A stretch of 62,795 nt of DNA, counting the filler, from Hausera hauseri (taxonomy: Eukaryota): the NCBI GenBank assembly GCA_046269625.1. It is 12 parts of 12 records of this genome, joined end to end, with 100 filler letters (N's around TTAATTAATTAA, not from the genome) between each part and the next. Parts side by side here need not be neighbours in the genome. Positions count along the whole stretch, not along the records: positions 36,701 to 42,997 come from JBJURY010116320.1; positions 43,098 to 48,258 come from JBJURY010318383.1; 10 more parts are not named here. One strand, given 5' to 3'. Position numbers and translations under genes: made by a program. The notes under the pieces were generated by a model, which worked only from the letters and a program-made list of their open reading frames with translations, was not told the origin of the DNA and ran no database searches. Positions 23,235 to 62,795 of this stretch are shown one piece after another (the stretch's first letter is position 1; each line of letters begins with the position of its first letter).

Positions 23235-23439
23235 TTTTTTTCTCCATAAAGTAAAAGCCAGTTTGTATTTTTACATGTTTATTTTGTGTAATATGGATAT
23301 TACAAGGAATAATTAATGTATTTTGTGAATTGAAATGTTTAATTTTTACAGTTTTCATTAATACCCTCATGTAACCGATTCTGTATTGTAAAAAACCTAA
23401 CTTGATTTCGTTACTTCACATTAATTATCTCACAAGCCA

Positions 23440-26922: not shown

Positions 26923-29900
26923 TTTAGATAATTTAAATCATAAGGTCTTTATTGTCCGGGCTATATTATATATTAGTCTTTCTTTCTCGGTTAATATGTA
27001 GCCCTGGAGTCCGGTATAATTGATTGTCCTAATTATGTCTTTCATTAACTCAATTAGTTCTTCGTTATCTAAACTCGGGGTTGGTACTGATAGTTGTCTC
27101 AACTCCCTAATCAGGTCTGAATTATAATTGATTTCTTTTATCCTTTTTTGGTCTTCCGAACGGTCATTTCGGTTTCATTGGTGGTAAGGTTTCACTTAGA
27201 AAGACTACGTTTTTATTGTGTTACGGGTTGTCATTATCAGTCTGTAAGTATTCGAAATACATTGCGGCATCTTGAATCCCCATGATTCTTCCAACGCAGT
27301 GCTCTGTATGCGCCCTTCTCATGGCTTTGTCTTTGGTCTACGCACTAACGATTATTGCTATTATTCGGTTTTCTTTGTGGGGTATAATCCCTACGTCTAT
27401 TAAGGATTATAGCTCGTCTAGTATCATGCCCTGAAATGAAGTTGGTAATTAACTTCTTTCCTACTATCCTTATCCATTATCCGTTGTTTTATAGCCCCAA
27501 CGGTGGTATAGGTAGTACATTCAAATTCCTCGTCGCCCATTCCTTTGGGTGATACCTGCACTTTAATTTCCGCTTCCGATTTATTTCTCAATAGTTTAGC
27601 GTATTCTCATATTAGAAGTTTGGGTACGGCGCTGTATGCGGTATTTTCACTGGATAGCTTAGTCAAAGTTGGAATCAATTTCCTTAACTTATCTTCACTT
27701 ATGTTTATTTTCAATACACCGCTCAATTCCTTTTCATCTAGCACAGGATCAAGTAGCATTTGCACTTCAAATTTCGTCTTCTTGGCACCAGGAGGTGACT
27801 CATAAATTTGTACTGGGGTTCGTTGACTTTACTCGGTTAACCCTTGGAGATATTCATCCCACTCGGCATCATTATCTGCATCAGGTAACTCGTAGGTCAT
27901 TAGTGCCGCATGTCCAACCTGGACTCTTTCGCGTAGTTATTTTATCTGCGGTGGTAATGTTTTCATTACGGATACCCTAAATCCGTCTCCGTTTCCGCAT
28001 ACTTATTGTATCAATGTTATTAATCGGCACATTTCTTCTGGTTGTATCAGAGCTTTCTCTTGATAGCTAGTTATTTCTGCGATTCTGTCTCTTTGCCATC
28101 TCTATGAATTCCATTTTGTCATTCATTTCGGATTCCATAAGAGAGTATTTGTTTTTATAGACTTCTGTTTCCCTCAATAATTCATTTAGTTCGCGCTGTC
28201 TTTTCTCGGAGTGTAACCGGGTTTCTTTTATCAGACGTATTCGATTTAGTAGTCGTTTCGCTACTACTTCGTCAACTTCTGCCATTTCTGTTAATAATAG
28301 AAATAATTTATGCGTCCGATTTAATACTTCGGCGTCCGGGTCTATTGCGTCCTTTAGCCTGCTTATAAACTTGGCTTCATCGCTCGTCAACTGAGGATCA
28401 TTTCTAATTTCTTTTAGTTCGGTATGGCAATGTAGGTCAAAACCTGGTGTCCATTTGCTGGATTCTGTAAATATTGTAGTTTTTACGCCAGGGCAATCCG
28501 GTGACCGTTACGTACTTCCAATGTTTCTACCTCTTCTGCTGAGATTTCCTTCAACGGTTTCTGTATTAGGTTCCCTTCCCAACGGATGTTCGCTAAACTT
28601 CGCTGAAGATTACTTAGCTTGTTTCTTTTTCTGTAAAATTCCTTCTCCTCTATCATACTGTATATTTCTGTTAACGTTGTCAGATCTTGATTCTGGCTCA
28701 TAAACTTCAATTATCGGAATGATTCGAATTTAGTTCGCAATTTCGCTTTGTCTTCCATTGTACCAATATCCAGTAACATTTCCTCCAATTGGTGTCTCAT
28801 TATAGGCTCAGCCACAGCGAATTCTCTTAGTCTTTCATTTATTATCCCGGCTATGGAAGGTAACAAGTCTATCCACTTCCTTAATTGTTCCGATATTGCC
28901 GGTTTAGCATAGATTATTTCGTTTAACGTCTCGAGAGCTTCTTTTAGTTTGTGATCTGGTCCTCGTACTAATTCTATGATTTGTTTTATATAGTTGAATT
29001 CGTCTTTATATTCATCTAATTCGAGAAGGCAAGCGCGTATTATTCTCTGCTTCTACCTTTTTAGAGTGAACTACATCGATCCTTAAGTCGTTGATTTTGG
29101 TTCGTTTTTCATTTTCTCTTTTAATGCGTATTTCCAAATCTAGATATTATCGAGGGCTATCCTTTATCAGGCTGCACATTGCTATTAAAGAGGGAATATC
29201 AGCTGGGTCTATACCCAATATTTCTATATCAGCATTAGTCAATTCATATACTGGCTTTTTGTGAATGTGAGAAGTTATTGCGTCTTTGATCTCATGTATC
29301 AATCCCTCTAAATTACGTCTTACGCGTTTCAGTTTTGTGTTGCCCTTTAGTATGTTCAATAGTCCTTGCGCTTGATTAACCTGATCGAAGAACGGTTCAT
29401 TTTTATTCCACCATACTTTCGTAAAATCGATCCCACTCCTTGTCCACAGTTCCAATTTATTTTGCCAGCTTTCTATCAAGTCTTGCGGCCTCCTGGAGTT
29501 CGCGAAGTGTGTTTTCCTCTTTTGTAAGGCCGGTTTTAAGCTTTTTATATAGCTTTTCTATGAATTGCTGTTCTTTTCCGGAGATATCCAACTGCTTGCT
29601 CATTTGTTGGAGTTTTTGCATGCTCTCATGTAGCCTTCCAGGATCATTCGGTGTGTCTCTTATTTTATTTAGTTCATTTGCATTTTTCCAGGATTTTCTA
29701 ATCTTCCCAAATTTAATAGATGTTTCCTCTTCTGGTTCCTCTTCACTAGGTGGTAACGGACATATTTCATTAATTTCGTCGATATTCGAAGTACTTGCCA
29801 TTTCCGGAACGCCTCGGTTTATCACAGGAGTATTTAATTCCGAAGTCTTCTTTTTCTAATTCCTTTTTAATAAGGGATCGTGAACGACTTCCCGACATTC

Positions 29901-31616
29901 TCCTAAGAGAAGGGCTTCTACCTCTATTTTTGGTTATTTTAAGTATTAATGGACCAATAAATTCGCTCTCAACCTCGTCTGTTGTTTTGTCCTTATTCTG
30001 AGACGCGACCTCAGTGTCTGCGTCCAAGTGTACACTTGAAGGCGTAGTCTGCTTTTCTTCTTTCTCCTCTTTCGTTGCTTGATTTAGGTTTTTCTTTCTG
30101 GCCATGTTATTATTCCTAGGTGCTATAGCATTCTCGTATTCCGTTTTTGGTTCTCTCAATCCATGATAAACTTCCATTAGTTGCAATTTTTCTTCGTACT
30201 CCTTTCTAGCCTTGATTACCTGTGGATTATTGCATTCGCTCATATTTCTTATATACCTTCGTAGGTCTTGCATCTCGATAATCATGCTTATGTCACTTCG
30301 TTTCCCATATATTCCTTCTAAATTATCCTTTATCGTGCTAGCCTTAGTGGTTTTTGAAAATAATACACTCCGTGGGTTAGGGCACGATCTAGCTATATGT
30401 CCTTCCTTATCGTATGAGTAATAAATCAGATTCCCGTCTCGACCAATCCTTTGTCGTCCGTCTTCATTTAATGGTGATTTGGGTCTACCCGTTATTTTGT
30501 TTTTAGTTGGTTGAGCTTGCTTATCGATTCCGTTATTTCTATTTTCGAAATTTTGATTATCTATATATCGATTCTTATTACTTCGGTCATTATTTTGGTT
30601 CCTATCGGAAATATAACCTGTTTTATTATACGGATTATATGTGTTCCGATTATCACTAAAGTTTCTATTGTCATATCTCAATGCGGTTAATAGCATTTTG
30701 AGCTCTATTCTCATAGCCTCGGTCTTTATTATTGTCATTAAATCTTCTATTGTTTCGGTTTCTATCCTGATTTTTGCGATCGTTATTTCGGTCATATCTA
30801 TCACTCTTTAGCGTATCTATCTAGTGCCATTTCTAGGTTCTGTGCTAACTGTGGTGCAGTCTCGAAATTATCTGGTCGAGCTAAAATCAATTGATTAACT
30901 GAGTCTCTGGACCATATACCGTTATCAATTGCGTTGTCATCATGACATCTAAATTTGGTGGGCTGGCTTTTTCTGCCGCTTCGCGTTCCGCTTCTATTTT
31001 TGTCTTCGCCGCATTGGCTATCCTTAATATACTCACGTAACTATTAGTAAGCTTCTTTAGTGCGAACGCAAATNNNNNNNNNNTGGTGTCACCGTCGGCA
31101 ATAGTTTACGATTCAGGGCTCCTACTACAGAGGACCACGATTCCTTTTCGTCATTAGTAAGTTCGCTATAAGCATCGTTTAATCATAACCTCGGGCGCAA
31201 GGCTGGCACCTTCCGCGTGCAATTTGTATGTTCTTAAAAAGTCATTTAAACCGTCTGGATCTTTATAATATTACGGTAAGTTCAACCAATCGAACTTATA
31301 AATATCAAGTTTCTGTGCTATAGCTGGATTATCAGCTGCCATCTTTATTTTATTCGGTTTATCTACTTTATCAATTCTATGAGGAGCTTTAAATTCTTTC
31401 GCGAGAGTTAGTTCATTGTCGGATAAACCGTGTTTGTCTATTACTTTGTCGTCAATATAGAGTTTATTCCGTGTTTCTCTTTTATTAAGTTTCTCTGTAC
31501 CGTTTACTAATAAGTTTTGACACGAGTTGAATCTATCAATGTGTGCTCTCTAATTAGTTTTTACTTAATTCCATTTCTAACCACTTATAATCCCAAGTTT
31601 AAACTCTTTACTCGAA
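26923..31616 (-). mobile_element. Env-in-polyprotein retroelement, copy 1 (most divergent): Gag start through UBL/AT-hook; decayed
   Basis: MAADNPAIAQKLDIYKFDWLNLP*YYKDPDGLNDFLRTYKLHAEGASLAPEVMIKR (ATG at 31342), N/R/D-rich tract, degenerate knuckle YYSYDKEGHIARSC, LILKITKNRGRSP, EILGIDP, DAIDPD and DAAMYFEYLQTD. All are collinear with the other three copies. Confidence 0.85.
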
Positions 31617-31716: not shown

Positions 31717-34700
31717 CATACGATGGTGATCCGGACGGGTTAAATTAATTATTGAGAACTTATAAATTGCACGCAGAAGGTGACAGTCTTACTTTCGAAA
31801 TGACGATTAAACGTTTGACGTTATATTTGAAGAATTTAGCCGCTGATGCTTATAGCGAGCTCACTAATGATGAGAAGAAATCTTGGTCCTTCCCGGTAGG
31901 AGCATTAAACCGTAAATTATTGCCGACAGTAACGCCATAACAGAAGCTTATGGCATTTCAAAATAGAATGCAACAGAAGGGTAAATCGGTAACCCACTTT
32001 ACATTTGCATTGAAGAAACTCGCCAATAGTTACGTAAGTACCTTGAAAATAGTTAATGTAGCAAAAGCTAAAACAGACGCAGAACGAGATGCTGCGGAAA
32101 AAGCAACCCCGCCAGATTTGGACGTCATGATGACAACTCAATTAATTAATGGTATTTGGTCCCAAGACTTAATTAAACAGTTGACTTTGGCCAGACCGGA
32201 GAATTTCGAGAAAACTCTGCAATTGGCGCAAGACTTAGAAATGGCACTTGATAAATATGCCAGACACAACGATAGAAATGATCAAAATAATGATCGAAAT
32301 GACCGTAATGATAGAAATCGGAATGACAATCGTGGAATAGATGATAGACGATTTAATGGAAATAGAAATTATGAAAACAGAAATAATAATAATGACTACA
32401 GGAATAGTCGAAACAACAGTTATGCTAATTGCCGAAATATGAATAATTCAAATTCGAATAGAATCCGAGGAAACTACAAAAGTTCTAACTATCTAAATCA
32501 TGATGATAATAATCGAAATAATGATAGTCGAAGAAATGTAGATAGTATATAAAGTTTGCCGAATCAGTACAATAGAAGTATAAATAGGTCCAAGTCACCT
32601 GTGAAAGAAGACGGTCGACAAAGAGACGGCAGAAATGGAAATTTAATTTGTTTTACTTGCAATAAAGAAAGGCATGTTGCAAGGTCATGTCCCAATCCGC
32701 GTATCGTTTCATTTACTCAGCCTAATAAGACTAGTATGATTAAAGTTAATGAAAACTTAGAAGCAAAGTATGGTGTTCGTGGAGATACAGGTACTATTAT
32801 CGACATACAAGACTTGCGAAAATTTCTAGATGCTCAAGCTGAAACTAATCCACAAATTTTGATGGCTAAAAAAGATATGGAGATAAGCTAAGACTATAAG
32901 AAGTGTATCATGGTTTGGCAGAACCAGAAACTGAATATGAGTATGCGATGGCACCCAAGCGAATTGATATGATACGAAAAAAGTGTTCCGACGAGTAATA
33001 AAACAGCATATAAACAAGGAACTTTGAAAGAAGTCGACTTAGATGCAGACCCCGAGTTCACAGTTGAAAAGGTAGATAAGATTACCGAAGACGATATAGC
33101 TGAAAAAGAATTCATGGAGCCATTAATACTTAAAATTACGAAAAATAGAGGCCGCAGCCCCTTATTGGAAACGAAACGTAGAAGTCGTTCACGTTTGCAA
33201 GTAACTAGAGAGAAAATAAAAGAAACGAAAAATACGAACATCGCTGTAGAGAGCGACGTAGAGCCTAGCTTAAATAATCCAGAAATTGGTCCATTCACAC
33301 CTATCGAGGTAAAAGAATCTTTAGAATCAATTAACAAAATTAACAAGATTTGCCCACTTCCCATTAGTGAGGAAGAAACGGGAAATGGTCATGATTTTGA
33401 TCCAAGAAAGTGGAAAGTCCGACGTTGGTGGAAAAACGCCGATGAATTAAAGAAAATGAGAATTAGATGCCACGATCTAGAAATATTACAACGGAATTTA
33501 GAAAGGCTTAAGCAGATTAGCGAACAAGTAGATATATCTGGTAAAGAGCAACAATTTGCTGAGAGGTTATATAAAAGTTTAAAATTATGTAGTAAAGGAA
33601 AGCTCGATGAAGCAATCGACTTAGGACAACCTGAAGATGTACCACCTGAAACGTTGCTAAAATGGAAGCGTGAATTAGAATCATGGATTAAAAGTGGAGT
33701 CGAATTTTCGGAAGGATGGAGTAAAAATGAAGATAGTGTTGATGTAAAAGTCGCTAAAGTTCAGACGTTACTGTCTACTTTAGAAGCAAACCCAAAACTG
33801 AAGAGAGTAGCCCGTAATTTAGAGCGTATGATGGATGAAATTCGTTGTGCCATGATCAATCGGCTTAGAGAAAAACCGGTTAGCATTCGAAGTGATATCA
33901 ATTTAGAAATATTGGGTATAGACCCAGTAGATATTCCGCCCTTAATGGAGATGATACAAATCGCCTTTGCTGTACCCAAGCAATATACGAACTAAGAGAA
34001 TCGTATTAAATGGAAAATGAATGTGAACACAAATCTGCAGTTTGAGAAACCGAATTATGTTTTTAAATAACGAAGAAACCAAATACGTAATAAAAGCTTG
34101 TATCGTAGAATTTGATGAATATAAGCATGAGTTTAGTTATGTTGGCCGGATTATGAATTTCATAAAGGGTCCAGACGATGAATTAAAGGATGCATATAAA
34201 ATGCTAGATAAGGCCATATTGGCGAAGCTAATAATCGCCAATCAATTGTCGGAATGGTCCGAATTAGTAGTGAGATTATGAAAATTAGTGGAAGATCGTA
34301 GAAAAGAATTTCCAGAAAGCGAGCCTTCTATAAGGAAACAATTAGAAGAAAGTGCACGTAACTTAGATTCAATAAAAACGGAAATAGATATTTGCACTCA
34401 ATTCGAAGCATTACGACAATTAAATTTTATGAAGAAGAAGCAAGAAGTAATGATACTGGAAGAGATTTATAAAATGATGGAAGAAACAAACTTTACAGAG
34501 AAGCGAAATGACTTTCAATTTCTACCCAAGATTAAGAAACGTCCGACTAAAAGGAGTCCAACATTTAACAGATAAACTTATCGACGAAATTTCGATCCAA
34601 GATATCGAAACCTTAGATATTTGTCCAGAAAATAGAACAGTTTTAGAGGAAGGAATAAAATTTTTGCATGAACCACAAGAATGGATGGCCGGAACAGATC

Positions 34701-36600
34701 AGAATTGCTATACCGAGTTGACGAAAATAAGAAACGACCAACATCTTAGTTTTGAAGAGTCTAAGTTCGTAAAGAAATTACTCGATGCTATAGATCCCGA
34801 CTCAAAGTTCACTAATGAGATGTACGAGTTAGCTTTTCTCTTAGTAGAAATGGCAGAAATTAATGATGAGATGAGACAATTGATGCCAAAATTACGATAA
34901 GTTGAAGAAACATGCATCAGGACTAAACAAAGAGCAACCAAGTTAGACGAACTAATGAAGGAGTTCGAAGTCTATGGGAACAAATATACTTTTACCGAGT
35001 CAGAAATCAAAAATAAACGTGAATTTGTACAAAGATGGCAAAGATATGTAACTATTGAACTAACTGATTATCACCAAAAAGGACTCATCAATTCTAATGT
35101 ATTAGGCGAATTAGTGAAAATGATTCAATATGCCTGTGGAAATGGAATAGGTATCCGAACTACGCAGATGAAAGAAATACAACCGACACTTAAAGAAATT
35201 CGAGAGAATGTACAAAGGGCGCATACAACGTTAGTAGACTATGGACTTCTAGACGTTGGAAATGAACCGGAATGGGATGCGTACTTAGATGCACTAACGA
35301 CTGAGAATCCTGTGACTCCAGTACAGCTAAATGAAATAGAAACGTGTCCGCAGAACAGGAGATTCAATGTGGAGATGCCCCTGGATTCAGCGCTAACTGA
35401 AAAAGATTTAATTGAATTAATTAACGTAAATATTACCGAAAGTAAGTCAAGACAACTTATTCCGACCTTGATTGAATTATCTATTGAGAACACTACAGCG
35501 CGGTGTCGAAACTTTTGATAAGGAAATATGCTAAAATCTTGAGGGCTAAACCTGAAGTAGCGATGAAGGTAATGGTATCATCCGAGTGGATGGATGAAAA
35601 AGAATGTGAGTCAACTACGTATTCTTATGTAAGGAACGTAAGAGAATGATTAATAAATAATGGTGGAACAAACGAGTTAAACTATAGATTCTACTTTAGA
35701 GGTAGAATACTGGACGAATTAGAACAGTTAATAGATGTTGGAATTATCCCCGGCGAAGCAAATCGAATAGTCGTGATAATAGCCAATGAACAGACTAAAG
35801 AAGAAGCCACGCGTAAGGCTAAGACAGACCAATGCGTAGGACAAATCATGGGAGTCCGAGACGCTGCAATGTATTTCGAGTATTTACAAACGGATGATGA
35901 TAAGGAACAATACGATAAGAATTGAGTGTAACTGAGTGAAACGATAACCAATGTCCCAAGGCCGAAACGCCCAGTCGGTAGGCCTAAGAAGACGCTAGAA
36001 GAAGCTGACTATAATGGTGAATTGATTAGAGAATTGAGACAGATGTCGATTCTTACCTTCACCACAGACAATGAAGAATTTAATACGAATCATAAATTAT
36101 TTAAGCCTTCGAGGTGACATATTGGATGATAAAGAGAAGGCGATATTCAATGCAGCTAGGATGATGAAAAGTTCACGTTTCAAACTATCAAAAGGTAACT
36201 TAACCGATGAATCGGTAATCGAAAAAATCATTGTGGAAAACACCACTGAAGAATTAAGAAAAATATTACTATACTTCGCTATCAAAATAAACCCTAATCG
36301 AGAGAATGAAATTAATAGAGCTACAAGCTTAGCACGAAGAGCGGCGAGAAAGCTACCCTGCGAGTTAAATTGGTCGAGATTATTCGACAAGGGAGAAGAC
36401 AAACGGTTCGGTAATAGTAATAGACTCGAAGATACGTTATATAATTTGACAACGACGGATAATAGAAATCGGAATAATGAATCAAATTGGTTAATCAACT
36501 TACTCACCTTGATGATGCTAATAAAGCAAATAGGTGCTGTTACCGTCTATGACTGCGATAAGTTTAAACTAGGACAGAAGTGCTCTCGAATGGATTTAGA
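31717..36600 (+). mobile_element. Env-in-polyprotein retroelement, copy 2: Gag, CCHC, helical region, UBL, AT-hook, signal peptide, glycoprotein start; decayed
   Basis: Retrotransposon Gag capsid (YDGDPDGL...LRTYK...LYLKNLAADAY...QQKGKSVTHFTFALKKL...QLINGI). Knuckle CFTCNKERHVARSC at 32649-32690. UBL FYFRGRILDELEQLIDVGI at ~35560-35790. KRPVGRPKK at ~35965-35991. Hydrophobic NWLINLLTLMMLIKQIGA followed by VTVYDC. Confidence 0.88.
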
Positions 36601-42420: not shown

Positions 42421-43699
42421 TTCAGAAATTCCAGATCACAAAGAACGAAAATCCAGATAAGACGGATTGACAATACTTTATTTAGTTTCAAAATTCTTCA
42501 ACTCAATTAATCAATTTTTTACAATTATACATATATACATATATTTACAAAGGCCAAAACGTTCACGATAATCAGACTAAAACACCGCACTGTGATATCA
42601 CAAAATCCTTCTGCATGTTAGTTGGGAAAATTGTAGAAGTGTGAACTGAAGTAACAATCTCACATTCTCGTTGACAATCGATAATCCATAGGCGATTTAG
42701 GTCGTTGTTCGTACAAATTGGACGCTCCAATGTCACGAAAACTTTAATTTTTCTGACATGATTTTTTGTTTTCTTATTATTTGAATGCATGTCGTTGCGC
42801 GGATTTGTTTTGAGACACTTGTTTTTCTTTAGTGATAGAATTATTCGACTCAGTTAAATTGGAATCAAATTTTCTCAATGAGTCAGTCAAATAGCTGGCC
42901 GAATGATTGGAATCGGATGATAACGGTTATTGTTTTGATAATTTAAACTTTCCTAATCTGAATCGTAAATGTTAATTGACGTTACTTCAATTCGTGCNNN
43001 NNNNNNNNNNNNNNNNNNNNNNNNNNNNNNNNNNNNNNNNNTTAATTAATTAANNNNNNNNNNNNNNNNNNNNNNNNNNNNNNNNNNNNNNNNNNNNGTA
43101 GCAGAAGTATAATCTTTCTTCTGCTGTTTTTTCTTATTATTCGACTTCGAGGCATCTCCTCTACGTAATCTACATGATTTAGCTATATGCCCATATTTAT
43201 TACAATTAAAGCATTTTAGTCTCCCTTCGGAGTCTATATTAGGTAAGGATCTTCCATCCTTTTTAGTTCTCTTTTTATAACTTACTTTTTCTCCATCATT
43301 CCGTAGATTGAATCTAACTTTCTTTTCTCCGTCTGACTCGGCTTCTGTAGCTGACGTCTGGGAAGGACTTCTATTTCTGTCGTAACGCTGATACTTTTGG
43401 GTACTATTGTTTCGTCTTTTATCGTAGCTATTATTATTGCTTTTAGATCTGTTCCACCTATATAGTTCCGCGTCTCGTTCAGCTTTCCGTGCCTTTCTTA
43501 TTGCTTCTTGGAACGTCGGTGGGTCTGCTTGAGAAATTATCGTTCTTAATCTTTCTTCTAATCCGTATTGGAACTGGGATGTTTTCGTCTACGGGTATCC
43601 ATACTTCTCCAAATTTTCTATCCTTAGCATTTTTCACGCCTTTATTCGGTCTGATTTCTAGTAACTTCCCTGTTTGTAAATCGATTGCTATATTTGGTA

Positions 43700-43990
43700 A
43701 TCTTTTCAGTAGATCACATCCTAGAACTACGTAATCGGTTAATTGCTCCATAACTGCAACTTCATGATGGAAAAACTGTCCAACTATTTGAACTTCTGGG
43801 TTCCATTTAAACATTGGTTTCGACATTTGGCCAAAAGCTCCTGTACTTCCTGGATCTTTCGTAGACGGTGGATATAACTGTCCTCTCAGCGTTTGAGATA
43901 TTGAATCATTTTTGATGTAAGACATCTCAGAGCCCCTATCAATTAATGTATAAACCTCCCAATCTTCAATAATAATCTTAGCGAAAGGTC
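43700..43990 (-). pseudogene. Retropepsin-type aspartic protease
   Basis: RPFAKIIIEDWEVYTLIDRGSEMSYI...GAFG...VVLGCDLL. The catalytic DTG/DSG reads DRG here; AGG is one change from ACG. Confidence 0.8.
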
Positions 43991-44689
43991 GTCCTTCGAT
44001 TACTGTTCGGAAACAATTTGACGCTACGCTTGGACGTTTGATCACCGATATTTTATGTCCATTGATTCGGATTTCTGGGGAGGATACTATGTTCTCCGAT
44101 ATCTGTCTTAACTCTTCGCTTGGATATAATTCGTTGTTTTCGATGTTTAATTCCGCCGTTTCGTGAGTACTAATTAACGATTCTCGATTGTTAGTGTGTA
44201 GCTCGGTATGTTGGAAGGTTTTTAACCTCGGTTTATCCCAAACCATCGATCTAGTTTCTATATTTTTAGGTTCTCTTGGTGAGTATAACATCTTGGAATC
44301 ATCGGTGGTTTGTCGATAGCACATTCTTCGTAAAATCCCGTATCGTTTGGTTCATTCATAAGGGTCTTCTACGTTGATTGTTCTTTTATAGATTTTCGTC
44401 TGATATGAGCTCATTGAACGTTTATCACAATCTTTATAGAATGGGGCGGAAGGAGGTAGCATAGGCAACGGCGCTTTAATGACAGAGTAAGTCTTATGTC
44501 GGTTTATTCCTGAAAGCGCTTCTCCTCCCTTAGGTTCGTCATCATCTGAATCATTTCTTCGCGAATTATGTTTTGTAAATTTCCGCTTTCGCAAGAATAT
44601 GGACCTTCCTCTTCGTTTATAACAATAGTAACTGACATGGCGTTCTACGTCCCATTTCCATCTATTCTCTTCGTATGCCTTTAAGAATT

Positions 44690-46449
44690 TTGCAAAAGGC
44701 GTTATAATTGCAGTCAATATCTTACATGAAAATCCAGTCAATGTAAATATTTCATAGCCATTTATTACTGCTTGGATGACTGCTTTAATTATGTGTATCA
44801 GAAAATAAATAGGTAAGAATCCGGATGCAGCTTGTCCGAATATCAGAAATCTTCCCCGTATTTTGTATAGTATCTCAGTTGTCACTCGCGGATAATGGTT
44901 TACGCCAAGTAAAGATTCCCATTTAGCCTGGTATCGTGTATCGTCCACTACAGAAGCCATAGCTCGATTTAACTCGTGTGTTCGCTGTCGTGGGAAGGCA
45001 AGGAATTGCTTAAAAGCCTCAATTTCCTTCGGTCTGTGTATGCCTTTCGATGAAGTGTCCTGAAATTTATCGTCTGTAATTCCTTTCGCGAGATTTAGTC
45101 ATGTTAATTTATTTGGAGCGGCAATAATACCTCCATTTGGCAAACTGACCCAATCTGTCTCATTACGTCTAAACATAGGTTCTCCTAAGCTTGCCTTACA
45201 ATTTTTAAGAATGGTCGGTTGGGTAGCGTTGTCCAATAACACTCGTCAGCGGTGTAGCTAATCTTGGAATATTTTGGTAAATAACAGGAAGTTCCTGAAT
45301 GCAACGTTTTTTCTAAGTTGATAGGTACATCTCTCTTTTCACATTCATAGGTTATCAATACTTCACTTGTAACTCAACCGAATATTCCTTCTCTCATAGG
45401 AATTATTGGAAAAGCCAGTTCTGAGTTTGCATATATCAGAGCCATTTTCGTTCTCATGATTTCCGTATCCAATTTGAAATCATTCATTATCATTTTATGA
45501 TATAATTCTGTTATTCCGACTTGTCCTTTGTAGTAAAAGTAATCGTCTCTATTCTTCAGGTAATCTTCGATGCGGACATCCTGCGTTTCTAATTTATAAG
45601 CTTTTGCATTTATTCCCGTTTCTGCGACGAAAAATGCCCCATAATTCGTAGCAAACATCACTACATCACAGCGAAAGATCACCTCTTTTTTAATAGATTT
45701 CAATCCATGTTGATTCGAGATTAATATAGTGGTTGTAGAGTGTTCTGATACATCCTCACGTGTCCTGGAGTTGGTTTCCGATTTGTCCACATATCGCTTT
45801 CCTGTAGTCTCATTAAACTTTAGTTCCTTAATTTTAATAAACTTGCAACATCTTTTAGAGAGGAGGCTCCCATATTATAACCGAACTTCTAAAAGTACAG
45901 GTTCTGTTTTGTAAATGACATTTTTGATTCTCGGTATATAGTTCGGTGACAATATGGAACATTACTTTCTGTGATCGCATTTCTGATTCGTAGAAATCCA
46001 CAACCACCACGTTTGCTTCTAATCCTTTTTCGGTGTCGTATTCTGCTCCATTACAATGTCCGCTATGCATATCCAATCTTCTGGCCACTATTTTGTATGC
46101 CCTGATTATTTTTCCTGGTTGCATCTCTAATTGCATACTATCCCATTGTACTCTTCCAGTTTCCTTGGCTTGTTTGCAGTGTTGGCGTTATAAGTACAGT
46201 GGAATTAGTGGAGTGGTTGGCTTGATTATGGATAAGTGTCCGTGTACCAACCCACAGTGAAAAATGCTGCGTGATCGTCTTAGCATAAATTCCATTCCAT
46301 TTAGCGATATCAGTTCTTGCTGCTGATACAGGAAGTAATTTTTCTATTTTGTATCCAACTTGTGTGGTCTGGCATCTTCGCATACTTCCAGATCCATTAG
46401 GGAATACTCTGTCCTCATTTAAACTTATTGCAGTCGTAAACGGTTACAG
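44690..46449 (-). pseudogene. Chuvirus-like (class III, herpesvirus gB-fold) envelope glycoprotein, frameshifted
   Basis: Starts VTVYDC after a signal peptide. Cys spacing C...C-x8-CG...C...GHCNG..Y...VVV...C-x5-C...IIWE; LYHKMIMND.KL..EIMRTKMAL..ANSELA; G..GRVT.EVL..YEC; LATPLTR; GI..PKEI..F..FLAFPRQR; FLIFGQAASG...IIKAVIQAVINGY...GFS.KILTAI. This follows the chuviral/Anakin-type glycoprotein pattern as recalled; no search was run. Confidence 0.75.
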
Positions 46450-48358
46450 CGCCTATATGCTTTACTAGCATCATCAAGGTGAGTAAGCTAATTAGCCAAT
46501 TTGATTTATTTTTCCGGCATCCAACGTCTGCCGTGGTCAAATTACGTAGCATATGGTCGAGTTTATTACTGTTTCGTCTGTCTTCTTTACTGTCAAATAG
46601 TCTTGACCAATTTACTTTATAGGGCAATCTTCTTGCTGCTTTTGGTGCTAGGCTTACAGCTCTATTGATTTCGTTCTCTCGATTAGGGTTTATTTTGACA
46701 GCCAAGTATAGTAGTACTTTTCGCAACTCCTCGTTGGTGTTTTCCACCATGATATTTTGATTACCGATTCGTCGGCTAAATTACTTTTCGATACCTTAAA
46801 ATGTGAACTTCACATCCTACTGGCTGCATCGAAAATTATTTTTTCTTTACCATCTAGTGTGTTAATCCGGAGACCCGAATAATTTACAATTCGTATTAAA
46901 TTCTTCATTAACTCATTTAATTATTCGTTACTTGTACTAAATGTCGGAATCGACATCTGTCTTAGTTCTTGAATCAATTTTCCGTTATAATCAAGTTCTT
47001 CTCGTGTCTTTTTAGGCCTGCCAAATGGGCGTTTAAGCTTTGGGCCTTTAGCGGTTAGTTCACTCCGTGGTACTAAATTTATATCGTATTGTTCCTTGTC
47101 TTCATCCGTTTGTAAATACTCTAAATACATTGCAGCATCTCGGACGCCCATAATTTGTCCTACGCATTGCTCTTCCTTAGCTTTGCGAGTAGCTTCTTTT
47201 TTGTCTGTTCGTTAGCCATCGTTACTACTATTCGGTTTCTTTCGCCGGGAGTAATCCCGATATCTATTAATTGTTCTAGGTCGTCGAGTATTTTGCCTCT
47301 AAAATAAATTCTATAATTTAGCTCATTTGTTCCGCCATTATGTAACAACCATTCTCTAACGTCCCTTACATAAGAGTAAGTGGTTAGCTCACATTTTTTT
47401 TTGTCCATCCACTTAGACGATACCATTACTTTTACCGTTACCTCGGGTTTTGCCTTCAAGATTTTAGCATGTTTCCTTATCAAAAGTTTCGGCACCGTGT
47501 TATAAATGGTATTCTCACTAGATAATTTAGTTAATGTAGGAATAAGTTGTCTTAACTTACTTTCAGTAATGTTTACATTAATTAATTAAATTAAATCTTT
47601 TTTAGTTAGCGCTGAATCCAGGAGCATCTCCACATTGAATTTCTTGTTCTGCGGACACGTTTCTATCTCATTTAGTTGCACTGGAGTCGTGGGTTTTTCG
47701 GCCGTTATTGTCTCTAAGTACGCATCCCATTCCTATTCATTTCTTATATACGGAAGTCCATAGTCTACTAAGGCTATATTCATTCGTTGCACATTTTCTC
47801 GGGTTTCTTTCAATCTCGGTTATATTTCTTTCATCTGCGTAGTTCGGAAGCCTATTCCGTTTCCACGGGCATACTGAATCATTTTCAATAATTCGCCTAA
47901 ATTATTGGAATTGATAAATCCCTTTTGGTGATAATTAGTTAGTTCAATAATTACATCCCTTTGCCATCTTTGTACAAATTCTCGCTTTTTTATTTCTAAT
48001 TTTGTAAAAGCATAACTGTTTTGATAGATTTTGAGTTCTTTTGCTAGTTCATGCAGTCTCGTTGCTCTTTGTTTTGTTTTGATACATGTTTCTTCTACTT
48101 GCTGTAATTTGGGCATCAGTTGCCACATCCTCTCATCATTAATCTCCTCCATTTCCACCAATAGGTAAGCTAGCCCATATATCTCGTTTATGACTTTTGA
48201 ATCTGGATCCATTGCATCCCGCAATTTCTTTACGAATTTAGCTTCCTGAAAACTGAGANNNNNNNNNNNNNNNNNNNNNNNNNNNNNNNNNNNNNNNNNN
48301 NNTTAATTAATTAANNNNNNNNNNNNNNNNNNNNNNNNNNNNNNNNNNNNNNNNNNNN

Positions 48359-48660
48359 GACATGAGAGAAGATGAAAAAAAATTATGGAAGGGGATTATG
48401 GGAGAAGATGAAGAGGGATTATGGGAGAAGATGAATGGAGATTATGGGAAAAGGTGAATGGGAAATATGGAAGAAGGTGAAGGGGGAATATGGGAGAGGA
48501 TGAAGGGGAATATAAAAGAAGATGAAGGGGATTATGAGAGACGATGAAATGGGGAATGAGAGAAGGTGAAGGGGGAATATGAGAGAAGATGAAGGGGGAT
48601 ATGAAAGAAAATGAAGGGGATTATGAGAGATGAAAGGGGATTGAGAGATGATTATGAGGA
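48359..48660. repeat. Purine-rich minisatellite (~22-nt unit)
   Basis: Repeated GAAGATGAAGGGG(G)ATTATG(G/A)GA-like units. The 48419-48739 minus-strand ORF is a by-product of the repeat. Confidence 0.85.
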
Positions 48661-49202
48661 ATTGAGTGATGTTATGTGCAAGAGCTGACATGGATATGCG
48701 CATTATTGTATCCAATAAAAACACTGTACGGAGAAACATTTAGAAGCCCATATTGCTAATTTTAACTTTGCATAATTTTTTTTCTATATGATTAATTAGA
48801 ATAAAATGTAGTTGTAAACTCTGACTAACAATATGGTGTTGTTCCATTTAAATAACGTAAGTTAAATCAATATTGAAATAATGTTGGTTTTTTGCAGCCT
48901 GTCACATTCACTCAATGGTCCACTGAATAGGCTACATACTATGGTACAGATGAACGGATGGGTTAAATGAGTATGACGTGTATTTGACAATACAATGCTA
49001 AATATCTGACTTTATTGTTTAATTATGCTTACATTATAAACATTTTAGTCATGGTCACCATAGCATTATATTCGTGAAAGTCTCCAATGTCATCAATTAC
49101 TCTTTTTACCATAAATTGATTCTTGAACACAAAGTGTCAATCGACTGAGCAGTAATTTACGTGACGACCCTCTCCAAAATTCTACCCAATACAAAATGTT
49201 AC

Positions 49203-49505
49203 CTGTGGCTGTTCGCTACAGAATTGTAAAATACTGCAAATTTTATCGACATCGAATTCGGACATTATAATGTTAAAAATGATAGTGAAATATTGATCCA
49301 CCAACTGTTGGCACTGAATAAATAAAAAATTTCTAACGACACGTTTGTCAAAAAGCATTACTTTTGCGGCTTCGGATCTGAAAAAAGAACAGATATCATT
49401 TTTAATGAAATTTTTCACAGCATCCTGGTGACTTTGATCGGTAATGAATTTTTTGATTTCCCCAAGAACAAGTTTACATGCTTCACATTCGATAGATTCC
49501 AATTT
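49203..49505 (-). CDS. Saposin B-type domain (prosaposin/saposin-like protein), two internal exons 49505-49362 and 49313-49203
   Basis: CEACKLVL...IC......CQQLVDQY...ICSILQFC has all six saposin cysteines once the 48-nt GTAATG...TTCAG intron (49361-49314) is removed. Flanked by acceptor CTCAG| and donor |GTAACA. Confidence 0.85.
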
Positions 49506-50989
49506 CTGAGTAGGCAATGAAACATCAAACAAGTATTCGAATTGGGATGGGCAAAATCAATGCCAGTTCCACCATCAATTCTCATAACCACCAATCAACA
49601 GAAAATAAGCACCAATAATTTTATTTCGATGAATGTATACAAGCAATATACTCGTCCTGTTTGTGTGATACTGTTGGCATCGAGTTCGGATATAATATTC
49701 ATTTAATAATTGTTGTTACTGAACAGAAAAAATGGACAAATTCTGTTGTTTAGAAAGTTTTTGATACTATCCTGATGGTCTAGAGAGAACAAGAATAATG
49801 AGGTTACGTGCCTCATATTCTAGTTTGCAAAACAATAATAGATGACAGAAAATAAAGTTCCGTCGATCAACATTTAATAAACGACAAATGAATTAACAGT
49901 TCTGTGTTATTGTATCTGCTATATTTTTCTCGAAGAATTGGACATACGTATATGTTTTTATGTGGGACTCGATCAAGAGACTTAATGATGGCATGCATAT
50001 TTGAACTGNNNNNNNNNNCAACACAGATTCTTCCGAGGGTGGGCCTGGGCTCGGGTCTTACATAAAAAAACAAAAACTGTTTTCCTGATCTGTTCAGACT
50101 GGGTTGGGCTAAAGCTAAACAAGTGCATCAAAGGCTTCTAAAAATTACTTCTGCGACTAACATGGGTACGAAACAGCGACGACATACTAGCGGAGAAAAA
50201 AATCGATGGATGTGCGTGTAACATGGCCAATCCGTCATTCCAGATAGATATATGAACTACCTCGATAAGCAAGCTACTTCATAATATCAAATCAGTTGAA
50301 TTATAAAGCGAGGGACACCCAGAAACCATCCGTGTATTCTATTAGGCCAAACAATCACCAGAAATCATTCAGCAAACTGCGATACCTGTGACGGTGATGG
50401 AGATGATGATGTTGATTGTGGACACATGTGTATAAGTGCACAAACTTGATCCGCATTAAACTCCTCAATAATGGCATTAATCACAGCACTAAAGTACTGA
50501 TCAACAAATATTTGGCACTGAAACAATCAATCGTAATGCCAGTGAGTTCTACTTATTACTTGAGTAACTTGCAATTGGAACAATGGGCAAATTTGAGTTT
50601 TTATGAAGTTTTGAATTTGAAATTGGAAATTCGGATCAGTTATGGTATGAATTACTTGGTTCATAACGGCTTTACATTGATCACATTGAGGTGTACTGGA
50701 TTTCTGACAATCAGATCATTATTAGCATTTAAAAATACTGAAGACATTTTATAAGCGTGTATTTCCAAAATTCAGGGTGTTCTAAATTCTGTTTCCAGAA
50801 ATTCCCAAATATTCAAACAAATTTTCATGCACATTAATTTTTGCTTATTTTATTAAACTTTAAAATACATCACGCTTTCGTTGAATCAATAAATAAAACT
50901 TTAAATCTTGCATAATTTAGTGTTTATCAAATTTTTCTCAAAATTCATCATCACTTCCCTCTCACTGAAAAGTCTTTAAACATTCAGTA

Positions 50990-52433: not shown

Positions 52434-55400
52434 TGATGGTGATCCGGACGGGTTAAATGAATTCTTGAGAACTTATAAATTGCACGCAGGTGCTAGTCTT
52501 ACTCCGGAAGTGATGATTAAACGTTTCTCGTTATATGTGAAGAATTTATCCCCCGATGCTTATAGCGAGCTCACTAATGATGAGAAGAAATCTTGGTCCT
52601 TCCTGGGAGGAGCATTGAACCGAAAATTATTGTCGACAGTATCGCCGGAACAGAAGCTTATGGCATTTCATAATAGAGTGCAACAGAAGGGTGAATCGTT
52701 AACCCAGTTTGCATTTTCATTAAAGAAACTTGCTAATAGTTATGTAAGTACTTTGAGAATAGCTAATGTAGCAAAAGCTAAATCAGACTCAGAACGTGAT
52801 GCTGCAGAGAAGGTAACCTCGCCAGATCTAGACGTCATGATGACGACTCAGTTAATTAATGGTATTTGGTCCCGAGATTTAGTTAAACAGTTGATTTTGG
52901 CCAGATCTGAGAATTTTGACAGAACTCTGCAATTGGCCAAAGACTTAGAGATGGCACTCGATAGATATGCCAGACACAATGATAGAAATGATAGAAATAA
53001 TAACCGGAATAATCATAGCGATCGAAATCGGAGTAATAACCGTTGAAGAGATGATGGACGATTTAATGGTAATAGAAATTATGAGAATAGAAATAGTAAT
53101 AATGACTACTGGAATAGTCGAAACAATAATTATGCTAATGGCCGAAATATGAACAAGTCGAATTCCAATTCGGATAGAAATCGAGGAAACTACAAAAGTT
53201 CTAACTATTCAAATCGTTATGTTGATAATCGAAATAATGATAGTCGACGAAATGCTGATAGTATACAAGGGTTGTCGAACCAGTATATTAGAGATACAAT
53301 TAGATCTAAATCACCCGTAAATGAAGACGTCGACAAAGAGTTGGCAAGAATGGAAATTTAGTTTGTTTTACCTGCAGTAAAGAAGGACATATTGCCAGGA
53401 CATGTCCAAATCCACGCAGCGTTTCATTTACTGAGCCTAATAAGACCAGCATGATTAAAGTTAATGAAAACTTAGAAGCAAAGTATGGTGTTCGTGGAGA
53501 TACAGGTACAGTTATCGACATACAAGACTTGCGAAAATTTCTAGATGCTCAACCTGAAAATACTATTCCACAAATTTTTATGGTCAGAAAAGTATACGGA
53601 GATAAGCTAAGACTATTAAAAGTGTATCACGGTTTAGCAGAACCAGAAACTGAATATGAGCAAGCGATAGCACCTAAGCGAATTTATATGATACAAAAAA
53701 GTGTTCCGATGAATAATAAAACAGCTGATAAACCAGGAACTTCGACCGAAGTCGACTTGGATGCAGAACCCGAGTTCACGGTTGTAAAAGTAGATAAGAT
53801 TGCCGAAGACGATATAGATGAAAAAGAATTCATGGAGTCATTAATACTTAAAATTACGAAAAATAGAGGCCGCAGCCCTTCACTGAAGAGGAAACGTAGA
53901 AGTCGAAAAATATGGTTGAAACGAAAAATTCGAACATCGCTGTAGAGAGCGACTTAGAGTCTAGCTTAAATACACCAGAAATTGGTCCATTCACACCTAT
54001 TGAGGTAAAGGAATCTGCAGAGTCAATTAACGAAATTAACGAGATTTTCCCACTTCCCACTAGTGAGGAAGAAACAGGAAATGTTGATGATTTTGATCCA
54101 AAAAAGTGGATAGTCCGACATTCGTGAAAAACGCCGATGAATTAAAGAAAATGAGAATTATATGTCACGATCCAGAAATATTACAACGGAATTTAGAAAG
54201 GCTTAAGCAGATTAGTAAACTAGTAGATATACCCGGTAAAGAGCAACAATTTGCTGAGAGGTTATATAAAAGTTTCAAATTATGTAGTGAAGGAAAGCTG
54301 GATAATTTAGGACAACCTGAAGAGGTATCACCTGAAACGTTGCTAAAATGGAAGCGTGAATTAGAATCATGGATTAAATGTAAAGTCGAATTTTCGGAAG
54401 GATGGAGCAAAAATGAAGATGGTGTTGATGTAATAGTCGCTAAAGCTCAGACGCTACTGTCTACCTTACAAGCAAACCCAAAACTAAAGAGAGTAGTCCG
54501 TAATTTAGAGAATATGATGGATGAAATTCGATGTGCAATGATTAATCGGCTTAGAGAAAAACCGGTTAACCATCGAAGTGACGTTGATTTAGAGATATTG
54601 AGTATAAACCCTGTAGATATTACTCTCTTAAGGAAGATGATAAAAATCGCTTTCGCTGTAACTAAACAACATACGAACCTAGAGAATCGAATCAAAATGG
54701 AAAATGAAAAGAGAACACAAATTTATAGTTTTAGAAACCGAATTGTCTCCAAACAACGAAGAAACCAAATACGTAGTAAAAGCTTGTATAATAGAGTCTG
54801 ATGAATATAAGGATGAATTTAGTTATGTCAGCCGGATCATGAATTTCATAAAAGGTCCAGATGATGAATTAAAGGATGCATATAAGATGCTAGACAAAAC
54901 TATATTGGCAAAGCCAGTAATCGCTAATCAATTGTAGGAATGGTCTGGATTAATAATGAGATTAAGCAAATTAGTAGAAGATCGTAAGAAAGAATTTCCC
55001 GAAAGCTAACCATCTATAAAAAGGCAACTAGAAGAAAATGCACGACATTTAGATACAATAAAGGCGGAAATAGATATCCGGACTCATTTCGAAGCATTAC
55101 GGCAAATAAATTTTATGAAGCAAGAAGTGACGATATTGGAAGAGATATATAAAATGATCGAAGAAACAAACATTACGGAAAAACGGAATGACTTGTAATT
55201 TTTACCCAAGATTAAGAAACGTCAGACTAGAAGAGTCCAACATTTAACAGCTAAACCTATCGACAAAATTTCAATCCTGGACATCGAAACCTTAGAGATT
55301 TGTCCAGAACATAGAACAGCTGTAGAAGAAGCAATGAGATGCATACACAAACCACAGGAATGTATGGCCAGAACAGATCAAATTTGCCATACCGAGTTGA

Positions 55401-58400
55401 CAAAAATGAGAAACGACCACCATATTAGCTTTGAAGAATCTAAGCTTATAAAGAAATTGCTCCATGCAATAAATCCCGATTCAAAAATCATTAATGAAAT
55501 GTACGAGTCAGCTTTTCTCTTAGTAGAAATGGCAGAGATTAGTGATAAGATAAGACAATTGATGCCTAAAATAAGACAGGTTGAAGAAACATGCATTAAA
55601 ATTAAACAAAGAGCAACCAGCATAGACGAACTAATGAAAAATCTCGAAGTCTATAGGAAAAAATATGCTCTTACCGAGTCAGAAATCAAAAATAAGCGAA
55701 AATTTGTGCAAAGATGGCAAAGGGATGTAATTATCGAACTAACTGATTATCACCAAGAGGAATTCATCCATTCTAATGAATTAGGCGAACTATTGAAAAT
55801 GATTCAATACTCCTGTGGAAACGGAATAGGTTTCCGAACTACGCAGATGAAAGATATACAACCGAGATTGAAAGAAATCCGAGAGAATGTACAAAGGATG
55901 AATACAGCACTAGTAGACTATGGACTTCCAGATGTTTGAAATGAGCCGGAATGGGATGCGCATTTAGATGCGATAACGGCCGAAAATCCTGTGACTCCAG
56001 TACAGCTAAATGAAATAGAAACGTGTCCGCAGAATAAGAGATTCAATTTGGAGATGCTCCTGGATTCAGCGCTACCTGAAAAAGATTTAATTGAACTAAT
56101 TAGCGAAACATTACTGAAAGTAAGTTAAGACAACTTATTCCGACTTTGACTAAATTATCTAGCGAGAACACAGTTTATAGCGCGGTGCCGAAACTTTTGA
56201 TAAGGAAATACGCTAAAATCTTGAGGGCTAAACCTGAAGTAACAATGAAAGCAAGCATATCATCCGAGTCTATGGATGAAAAAGAATGTGACTTAACTAC
56301 GTATTCCTATGTAAGGGACGTAAGAGAATGGTCAAAAAATAATGGTGGAACAAGCGAGTTAAACTATAAATTCTATTTTAGAGGTAGAATATTGGACGAT
56401 TTAAAACAGTTAATAGACGTCGGGATTATCCCCGACAAAATAAATGGAATAGTGGTGATACTAGCCAATGAACAGACTAAAGATGCCACGCGTAAGGCTA
56501 AGACAGAACAATGCGTAGGACAAATCATAGAAGTCCGAGACGTTGCAATGTATTTTGAGTTTTTACAAACGGATGAGGACAAGGAACAATACGACACGAA
56601 TTTAGTGCCACTAAGTGAAACGATAACATATGCTCCAAGACAGAAATGCCCAGTTGGTAGACCTAAGAAATTACGAGAAGAAGCTGACTATAATTGAGTA
56701 TTAATTAGAGAATTGACAGATGTCGATTCCTACCTTCAGCACAGACAATGAATAATTCAGCGAATTAATGAAGAATTTAATACGCATTGTAAAATATTCA
56801 AGCCTTCGAGGCGACACATTAGTCCATAAAGAGAGGGCGATATTCAATGCAGTTAAGATGAGAAGTTCACGTTTTAAATTATCAAAAAATAACTTAATCG
56901 ATGAATTGGTGATCGAAAAGATCATGGTGGAAAACACCGTTTAAGAATTAAGAAAAGTATTACTGTACTTAGCTATCAAAATAAACCCTAATCGAGAGAA
57001 TGGAATTAATAGAGCTACAAGCTTAGCATGAAAAGCGGCGAGAAAGCTACCCTGCGAAGTAAATTGGACGAGATTATTCAATAACGAAAAAGATAAACGG
57101 TTCGGTAATAGTAATAGACTCGAAGATATGTTACATAATTTGGCAACGACGGATAATAGAAATCGGGAAAACGAATCCAATTGGTTAACTAGCTTACTCA
57201 CCTTGATGATGCTAATAAAGCATATAGAGAAGGAATTCTCTAATGGATTTAGAAGTGTGTGAGGACGCCAGACCACATAAACGGGAAACAAGGGAGAAAA
57301 GTTACTTCCTATATCAACAGCAAGAATTAATATTGTTCAACGGAATGGAATGTATGTTGAGACGATCTCGTAGTACTTTTCACTATGGATNNNNNNNNNN
57401 TACTTCAATAATGAAACCAACAACTCCTCCAATCCCAATGAATTTGGAACGCCAGGATTGTAAGCAGGCCAAGGAAACCCGCGGATTAAAATGGGATAGT
57501 ATGGAACTAGAGATGCAACCGGAAAAGATAATTAGAGCATATAAAGTAGTGGTTGGAAGGCTAGATATGCATAATGGACATTGTAATGAAGCAGAGTATG
57601 ATACCGAAAATAGACTAGAAGCAAACGTAGTGGTCGTAAATTTCTATAAATCGGAGATGCGAGTAAAGAAAGTAATGGCCCATAGCGTCACCAAATTATA
57701 TACCGAGAATCAAAAATGCCATTTACAAGACGGAACCTGTGCCTTCACAAGTTATGTTATAATATAGAAAACTTCCTTTGGAAGAAACTGTAATTTTATC
57801 AAAATCAAGGAATTTAAATTTAACGAAACTACCGGAAAGCGATATGTAGATAAATCCGATACCACCTCAAGGACACGCGAGGATGTAGCAGAACACCCTA
57901 CACCTACTATATCGATCTCCGACCAGCATGGACTAAAATTTATTAAGAACGAAATGATCTCTTGTTGCTAAGTGGTCATGTTCGCCACTAATTGTGAAGC
58001 ATTTTTCGTCGCAGAAACGGAAATAAATGCGAAAACGTACAAGCTAGTAACGCAGGACATTCGGATTGAGGATTAACTGAAAAACCGAGATGATTACTTT
58101 TATTACAAAGGACAAGTTGGAATAACCGAATTATATCACAAAATGATAAAGAACGATTGTAATTGGATATGGAAATCATGAGGACAAAATTGGCTCTTAT
58201 TTATGCTAATCCTGAGTTAGCCTCTCTCATAATTCCTGAGAGAATGAATTTTCGATCGCGTTACCGTTGAAGTCCTATTGACTTATGAATGTGAGAAAAG
58301 AGACGTACCAATCAACATTGAAGAAAAACATTGCATACAAAAATTCCTCTTTTCTTTACCACAATACTCCAAGGTTAGCCACACCGTTTACTAGAGTGTT

Positions 58401-58452
58401 ACTAGACAATGCAACTGAACCAACAATCCTTAAAGATTGTAAAGCAAGTTTA
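52434..58452 (+). mobile_element. Env-in-polyprotein retroelement, copy 4: Gag through glycoprotein ectodomain; decayed
   Basis: Gag, intact knuckle CFTCSKEGHIARTC (53364-53405), UBL FYFRGRILDDLKQLIDVGI, PVGRPKK, signal peptide and glycoprotein (MDLEVCEDARP...GHCNEAEY...CHLQDGTC...LATPFTRVLLDN). All lie on one contig and strand, apart from a 10-N gap at 57391-57400. Confidence 0.88.
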
Positions 58453-62700: not shown

Positions 62701-62795
62701 TGCAGACAAGAACGACAAATATTTTATCTGCCGACATTTACCTCTTCTATGAAATATATTTCAGGCATCGAAAATTTGGTAGCAAATTTTCTGTC
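59780..62795 (+). mobile_element. CsRn1-like Ty3/Gypsy element: UBL leader, Gag (CHCC), protease, RT, RNase H; decayed, runs off window
   Basis: Gag ITDSFVRANSLL. CIYHNNYQSQARSCVPGC is the CHCC motif typical of the CsRn1 clade. Protease INSGA...IGSDFL. RT MPFGLRSAYQTF...Y.DDI-like...KCNFFQKRVNFLGH. RNase H PLEFFSRKL...HELLAI...TDHKP. Confidence 0.9.

Follow-up and report, generated by a model that had tools for sequence, protein, structure and literature searches.

A high-copy retroelement family with a gB-type glycoprotein between Gag and protease, probably of Burro type, in a flatworm-like host

Copies of the element and their order

The window, that is the whole stretch of DNA analysed (62,795 nucleotides), is made up of 12 contigs with spacer runs between them, and copies of one retroelement were located on four separate contigs:

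26923..31616, minus strand: copy 1, with a likely Gag start (ATG 31342) and a degenerate knuckle (30382-30420), extending to the helical domain
31717..36600, plus strand: copy 2, with Gag, CCHC (32649-32690), helical region, ubiquitin-like domain (Ubl), GRPKK, helical domain, signal peptide and first glycoprotein residues
43098..48258, minus strand: copy 3, whose features are given below
52434..58452, plus strand: copy 4, with Gag and CCHC (53364-53405), reaching mid-glycoprotein; the end of the signal peptide is deleted

In pairwise alignments the four copies were collinear and the longest indel was at most 49 nt, with copy 1 (approximately 63% identical) included. Identity was 87.5% over 4757 nt for copies 2 and 4, 80.0% over 1845 nt for copies 2 and 3 and 78.7% over 3004 nt for copies 3 and 4; copy 1 was 63.9% identical to copy 2 (4215 nt), 63.3% to copy 4 (4242 nt) and 61.3% to copy 3 (1440 nt). 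This collinearity bears out the proposal of the preliminary description that four copies of one family tile into a single order. The order, which is composite across the four copies, is Gag, CCHC, approximately 950 helical residues, a ubiquitin-like domain, an AT-hook motif, a helical domain, an internal signal peptide, a gB/chuvirus-type glycoprotein, a membrane segment, a tail and a retropepsin. Copies 2 and 4 had both been described as joining Gag to the glycoprotein on one contig. This holds for copy 4, in which the glycoprotein starts at 57243, ahead of a 10-N gap at 57391, whereas copy 2 reaches just the signal peptide and the first glycoprotein residues. A total of 15,505 contigs of run X1 mapped onto copy 3, indicating a high copy number.

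Domains encoded by the element

Copy 3 is the only copy to extend beyond the glycoprotein, and its features, all on the minus strand except the junction, to which no strand is assigned, are as follows:

47600..48258, minus strand: end of the long helical region (Smc-like position), collinear with copies 1, 2 and 4; rich in E/K/R/Q/L and poor in P/G
47205..47459, minus strand: ubiquitin-like domain (PF00240, E 0.0016, below the curated cut-off)
47008..47022, minus strand: AT-hook-like GRPKK motif, present in 4/4 copies
46577..46998, minus strand: helical domain at the place of Burro's BCL2-like domain, kept in four copies; stop and frameshift in copy 3
46439..46495, minus strand: internal signal-peptide-like hydrophobic segment (Kyte-Doolittle 1.92)
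44823..46438, minus strand: glycoprotein ectodomain of gB/chuvirus type, spread over several frames (whole frame: PF24664, E 2.4e-28)
44694..44819, minus strand: membrane segment (44763-44819, Kyte-Doolittle 2.04) and a second, weaker hydrophobic segment (44694-44750, 1.52)
44022..44693, minus strand: predicted cytoplasmic tail and linker, sharing the frame of the glycoprotein end and the protease; one stop at 44354
43698..44021, minus strand: retropepsin (PF00077 (RVP), E 0.0036, below the curated cut-off; PF13975, E 0.045)
43575..43575: probable junction to a different element; 41 run X1 contigs share a loose end and the frame changes
43098..43574, minus strand: Gag C-terminal helix, low-complexity tract and CCHC (43172-43213; PF00098, E 1.5e-5), probably of a different element

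Sequence searches with the family's Gag returned no Pfam or PDB match. Its nearest Atlas clusters were Retrotrans_gag/Ty3_capsid at 0.93, which is a lead and not an identification, and a cluster in which 22% of the members carry DUF1759 ranked 18th in that list. The single CCHC knuckle of the family's Gag matched PF00098 (E 5e-5). The helical region that follows covers approximately 954 codons and has a helix-type composition, with coiled-coil families matched only below threshold in Pfam; for its end, one unnamed relative of approximately 150 residues (P0008, E 4.5e-16) was found among 1.84 billion representatives. A four-copy profile of the ubiquitin-like domain gave weak, concordant matches to ISG15 (E 0.011), ubiquilin-2 (E 0.078) and also ubiquitin. 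The GRPKK motif, which resembles an AT-hook, had no Pfam match. The helical domain was modelled with six predicted helices at low confidence (pLDDT 45), and searches of Pfam, PDB and Atlas gave it no match, nor did a fold search with that model; fold searches with two low-confidence models (pLDDT 45.1 and 45.5) returned nothing at E 0.001.

The signal-peptide-like segment was also observed in copy 2 (Kyte-Doolittle 1.78 at 36491). Three single-frame pieces of the copy 3 ectodomain matched PF24664 in profile order at positions 35-208, 245-392 and 416-601 (E 1e-10, 2e-5 and 3e-18), and the in-frame pieces contained 13 cysteines. No relatives were found in viral contigs or metagenome contigs, nor was any relative present among 798 and 614 candidates of at most 2000 residues, a range that excludes a polyprotein of 4,900 residues; no relative of full length was recovered in these searches. 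The catalytic motif of the retropepsin is altered in copy 3 (43929-43946), and PDB sequence searches with the protease yielded no useful match. Pfam searches of the four copies found no RT, RNase H or integrase and no MATH, BIR or ankyrin match.

A single ancestral reading frame

Stops and substitutions by codon position were counted in the best frame for copies 2, 3 and 4, with blocks shorter than 60 nt dropped and copy 1 left out. Between copies 2 and 4 there were 17 private stops and none shared (1518 codons), between copies 3 and 4, 16 private and one shared (944 codons), and between copies 2 and 3, nine private and none shared (601 codons), giving one shared stop in 3063 aligned codon pairs. 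At the position of the shared stop, 982 of 1009 run X1 depth units differed from the window. Substitutions at codon positions 1/2/3 numbered 171/109/324 for copies 3 and 4, 102/74/186 for copies 2 and 3 and 180/142/254 for copies 2 and 4; this bias is a purifying-selection pattern across the aligned span. From the end of the glycoprotein to the protease copy 3 maintains a single frame over 592 codons with three stops, which confirmed the link between these two parts that had been reported for this copy. Since the stops are nearly all private and third positions show an excess of substitutions, one long ancestral frame is likely, extending over approximately 7.7 kb up to the protease, in agreement with the continuous frame of roughly 8 kb proposed earlier. 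The sequence supports a retroelement that was enveloped and had gag, env and protease, in this order, within one ancestral frame.

Comparison with published elements

This order had been put forward as undescribed, and that view was not sustained: it is already published, as the available text of two papers makes clear. For Burro of planarians, PMC6431247 gives Gag-CCHC-Smc-Ubl-BCL2-Env-protease in one ORF, so that the comparison with Burro suggested in the preliminary description proved apt, and PMC13524379 lists GAG-ENV-POL elements with a gB-type env in flatworms, nematodes and bryozoans. Burro/GYPSM1 are described as giant gypsy-like LTR retrotransposons of dugesiid planarians, more than 30 kb in length with long LTRs, with dUTPase, RT, RNase H, integrase, BIR and ankyrin downstream of the protease and an env that has matches to mononegavirus-type fusion proteins (PMC6431247).

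The present family resembles Burro in its N-terminal retrotrans_gag-like region (Gag by the Atlas lead) followed by CCHC, a long region of helix-type composition in the Smc-like position, the ubiquitin/SUMO-like domain upstream of env (weak matches), the helical domain just upstream of env, and the env lying in frame between gag and protease, the single frame being judged from private breaks. It is likewise present in high copy number, and its copies are decayed, as are those reported from Dugesia japonica (PMC6431247). Differences were also observed. The family's Gag has one CCHC, whereas Burro has two or three, a number that varies within the group; no MATH match was obtained in the present copies, a domain also missing from ORF1 in D. 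tigrina; the helical domain upstream of env is only a putative counterpart of BCL2; and the AT-hook-like motif is not mentioned in the available part of the Burro account (PMC6431247). The dUTPase, RT, RNase H, integrase, BIR, ankyrin and LTRs of Burro are absent from the window.

With the GAG-ENV-POL errantiviruses the family shares a gag-env-pol type of order and a gB-type ectodomain flanked by signal peptide and membrane segment. The published elements are, by the available text, intact and classified by RT, whereas the present copies are broken and have no RT in the window. In the first half of the ectodomain the cysteine spacing, the insert and the ATNY-type motif fitted six Schmidtea C1a rows better than 19 nematode rows, in an unscored comparison by eye with one of the 114 parts of the file (PMC13524379). 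Smed_errantivirus_1-6 span 14.5-18.0 kb, and those of 14.5-14.9 kb are, judging by length, presumably Burro, a name that the available text of PMC13524379 does not use. Anakin elements of mosquitoes (PMC7642597, in the part available) also carry a glycoprotein of the same broad class, that of chuviruses, inside an LTR retrotransposon. They have a BEL/Pao backbone and an insect host, whereas the present Gag looks gypsy-type (Atlas lead) and env precedes the protease; no BEL/Pao Pfam match was obtained in the present copies, and a BEL/Pao-type Gag backbone was not encountered.

The top match of the host Ski2 gene was Schistosoma, and the highest identities were with Schistosoma and Spirometra. 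In a quick tree with long branches and no planarian row it grouped with the same two genera (SH-aLRT 100). Ski2 thus points to a flatworm-like host.

Interpretation and alternatives

Our preferred reading, to which we give a probability of about 0.8, is that the four copies in the window, all decayed, belong to one high-copy retroelement, which is likely to be a flatworm's Ty3/gypsy LTR element of Burro type and in which Gag, the accessory domains, a gB-type env and the protease were likely once one polyprotein. The Burro-type placement is favoured by the shared domain order, the likeness of the env by eye and the flatworm-like Ski2. In such an element one long mRNA would be translated to one polyprotein, of which Gag, helical region, Ubl and the helical domain after it would remain in the cytosol while the internal signal peptide targeted the glycoprotein to the ER. 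Cleavage by host signal peptidase after the signal peptide would leave the upstream part anchored by that peptide, an arrangement in keeping with a tail-anchored Bcl-2-like domain, should that putative identity hold. Past the membrane segment the chain would be back in the cytosol, and there the retropepsin would release itself, pol and Gag. Budding particles would carry a class III fusogen and might be able to move from cell to cell. If Burro is a guide, other copies may have dUTPase, RT, RNase H and integrase after the protease; in copy 3 a Gag tail from another element has likely taken the place of the pol part at 43575, whether by deletion, recombination or misassembly.

The Gag-like helix and second CCHC had been taken as the last parts of the order. 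They are seen in copy 3 alone, the only one of the four copies to reach that far; the piece begins mid-capsid in another frame than the protease, shows no DNA match to the family's Gag and matches it as protein only at the knuckle, and among the matches listed a single long piece from X1 and one from X2, in addition to the 41 X1 contigs, depart from the window sequence at 43575. From this other frame, the single copy and the departure of contigs of two runs we infer that the piece is probably not part of the family architecture. The same observations weigh against a true family feature marking a pol-less, non-autonomous enveloped subfamily with a second nucleocapsid at its end and RT and integrase supplied by helpers. 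We consider that subfamily unlikely, even with 43098-43616 covered in X1 at 12,000-26,000, no less deeply than the rest, with no RT in the four copies, and with three X3 contigs that end loosely at 43625 and not at 43575. Its fuller form, a Burro derivative that spreads like a viral satellite and whose Bcl-2-like domain is held in the membrane by the signal peptide of env, is similarly doubtful.

An independent GAG-ENV-POL lineage that merely looks like Burro, perhaps from a host that is not a dugesiid planarian, would accord with the available statement that such elements are not monophyletic (PMC13524379), with the single knuckle, the lack of a MATH match in Pfam and the only putative Bcl-2 identity, and with a host placed as flatworm-like and no closer; helical region, Ubl, helical domain, env and protease in Burro's order and an env nearest by eye to the Schmidtea rows make it quite improbable. 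Most improbable is a mosaic, in which a chuvirus-like glycoprotein gene or second element was inserted into an ordinary gypsy element and later copied. Loose contig ends at 44515-44562 in the tail, found in all three runs (X1, X2 and X3), would fit such an event, as would a glycoprotein-protease link that rests on one contig. Against it, Gag and env are linked in copies 2 and 4 and Ubl and env also in copy 3, the purifying-selection pattern spans the alignment, and the frame continues from env to protease. As to nested insertion, raised as a test in the preliminary description, no LTR-like repeat was found inside the four contigs (4.7-6.0 kb each), nor any large indel or repeat boundary.

A gag-env-pol polyprotein is unusual among retroelements yet has been published twice, and the present family would be a fairly diverged further example that has a single knuckle and a motif like an AT-hook. 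The family suggests a topology in which host signal peptidase splits the polyprotein. As every one of the four copies is broken, open questions are better pursued with the intact elements of Schmidtea. Contigs 8 and 12 of the window were considered as the missing pol and rejected: they have no likeness to the family, their RTs belong to another family, and they carry a gag-protease of their own.

Domain order in four overlapping copies

The window comprises 12 contigs, each of 4-7 kb, with spacers between them. Four copies of the enveloped retroelement family were compared:

26923-31616 (-), copy 1, carrying the putative Gag start (31342)
31717-36600 (+), copy 2, Gag to signal peptide and glycoprotein
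43098-48258 (-), copy 3, helical region to past the protease
52434-58452 (+), copy 4, Gag to signal peptide and glycoprotein

These were mutually collinear end to end with no indel >49 nt and 61-88% identity; the single order proposed in the preliminary description was upheld as far as the protease, as was the Gag-to-glycoprotein link on copies 2 and 4. All four copies are broken, and the protease motif is altered in copy 3.

The glycoprotein assignment is firm: three pieces in profile order matched PF24664 (whole frame E 2.4e-28), and hydrophobic segments were present on both sides. The CCHC call gave E 5e-5; the calls for retropepsin (E 0.0036) and the Ubl domain (E 0.0016) lay under Pfam's cut-off, the Ubl being supported by PDB profile matches. 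Gag had no match in Pfam or PDB searches, and its closest Atlas clusters were retrotransposon Gag (0.93). For the helical domain that precedes the signal peptide, a Bcl-2 fold found no match in a PDB sequence search, in the Atlas (uninformative) or in a fold search with a low-confidence model (pLDDT 45). The end of the helical region had a sole match among 1.84 billion representatives, P0008, an unnamed 150-residue protein 38% identical to it.

Evidence for a probable single ancestral frame

Stops were compared in three copy pairs, copies 2-4 (1518 codons), 3-4 (944) and 2-3 (601); blocks <60 nt were discarded, the frame with fewest stops was taken per block, and copy 1 was excluded as too diverged. 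Private stops numbered 17, 16 and 9, respectively, against one shared stop in total, confirming that most stops differ between copies; other frames averaged 353, 186 and 136. The third codon position had the most changes in all three pairs. Contigs of three runs (X1-X3) were compared with copy 3; where the shared stop lies, the window disagrees with 982 of 1009 X1 depth units and copy 1 is open, so this stop is not the family's state. Copy 3 reads from the last glycoprotein part to past the protease in one frame (592 codons, 3 stops), bearing out the glycoprotein-protease link of the preliminary description. Together, the mostly private stops, third-position excess and copy 3 frame make a single ancestral ORF likely, as judged from copy pairs. 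The roughly 8 kb proposed earlier compares with 7,704 nt by summed overlaps from the ATG to 43575, downstream of retropepsin in copy 3.

Contigs falling on copy 3 in the three runs numbered 15,505, 1,103 and 138, covering 30/30, 30/30 and 27/30 bins; the family is abundant. Loose ends at 44515-44562, in the tail, occurred in all three runs, so the envelope-protease link is directly seen on one contig only; most simply, they would reflect a variable tail.

The second Gag helix and CCHC (43098-43574, -), previously counted as part of the family, do not appear to belong to it. They lie in a different frame from the glycoprotein-protease and begin mid-capsid; their nucleotide sequence does not resemble the Gag of the family, and the protein match to it was confined to the knuckle. 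Among the loose ends listed, 43575 is common to 41 X1 contigs, and it is also the exact point at which one long X1 piece and one long X2 piece cease to fit. We read 43575 as the point where a different abundant element is joined on, via deletion, recombination or misassembly, although copy 3 is the sole copy extending past it and this reading draws on the pieces and loose ends listed, with a further 16,800 pieces and 1,372 loose-end rows beyond them.

Proposed mechanism and related elements

The family probably works as a Burro-type enveloped gypsy element, Burro being giant gypsy-like LTR retrotransposons of dugesiid planarians (PMC6431247); no RT or LTRs of the family were found within the window. 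From the anatomy, one polyprotein would be made with Gag and accessory domains cytosolic. The class III fusogen would enter the ER by way of the internal signal peptide, behind which the host's signal peptidase would cleave, and the membrane segment would return tail and protease to the cytosol, where retropepsin could process the polyprotein; particles would be enveloped. If the helical domain that precedes this signal peptide were BCL2-like, the peptide might also serve as its membrane anchor.

The gag-env-pro order, which the preliminary description did not know to be described, has published precedent: PMC13524379 describes flatworm, nematode and bryozoan GAG-ENV-POL elements whose env is gB-type, including six in Schmidtea (14.5-18.0 kb). 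A visual, unscored comparison of cysteine spacing, the insert and the end motif placed the window ectodomain nearer to the Schmidtea rows shown there than to the nematode rows of that page. For planarian Burro elements, PMC6431247 gives Gag-CCHC-Smc-Ubl-BCL2-Env-protease within a single ORF, the BCL2-like domain occupying the place of our helical domain; unlike Burro, which has two or three knuckles, the window family has one, an AT-hook-like motif (4/4 copies) and, in the part present, no MATH, BIR or ankyrin match. With Anakin, mosquito BEL/Pao elements, only the glycoprotein class is common, as far as the accessible part of PMC7642597 goes.

Host and other features of the window

Contig 1 carries a host gene, Ski2 helicase, whose protein search gave Schistosoma as best match; top identities among the 120 matches listed were Spirometra 52% and Schistosoma 50%, across roughly half its length. 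In a quick 18-row tree it fell, on a very long branch, with Schistosoma and Spirometra (SH-aLRT 100). By sequence the host is likely a flatworm, and plausibly a planarian. Other features were:

1356-4595 (-), the Ski2 frame used as host marker, 1079 codons, uninterrupted and intron-free
5334-10073 (+), uninterrupted 1579-codon C2H2 zinc-finger frame that also has AT-hook-like motifs, GC ~45%
12780-13841 (-), integrase core (PF00665), with a degraded relative at 51150-51470 (-); no link of either to the enveloped family was shown
21417-23234 (+), intact hAT transposase, 605 codons, with BED finger and dimerisation domain
36701-38972 (-) and 59978-62795 (+), decayed copies, 68% identical, of an ordinary gag-protease-RT gypsy-like family, rejected as kin of the enveloped family
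49182-49556 (-), Saposin-like domain (SapB_1 and SapB_2 matches)
23434-23917 and 48388-48662, degenerate tandem repeats
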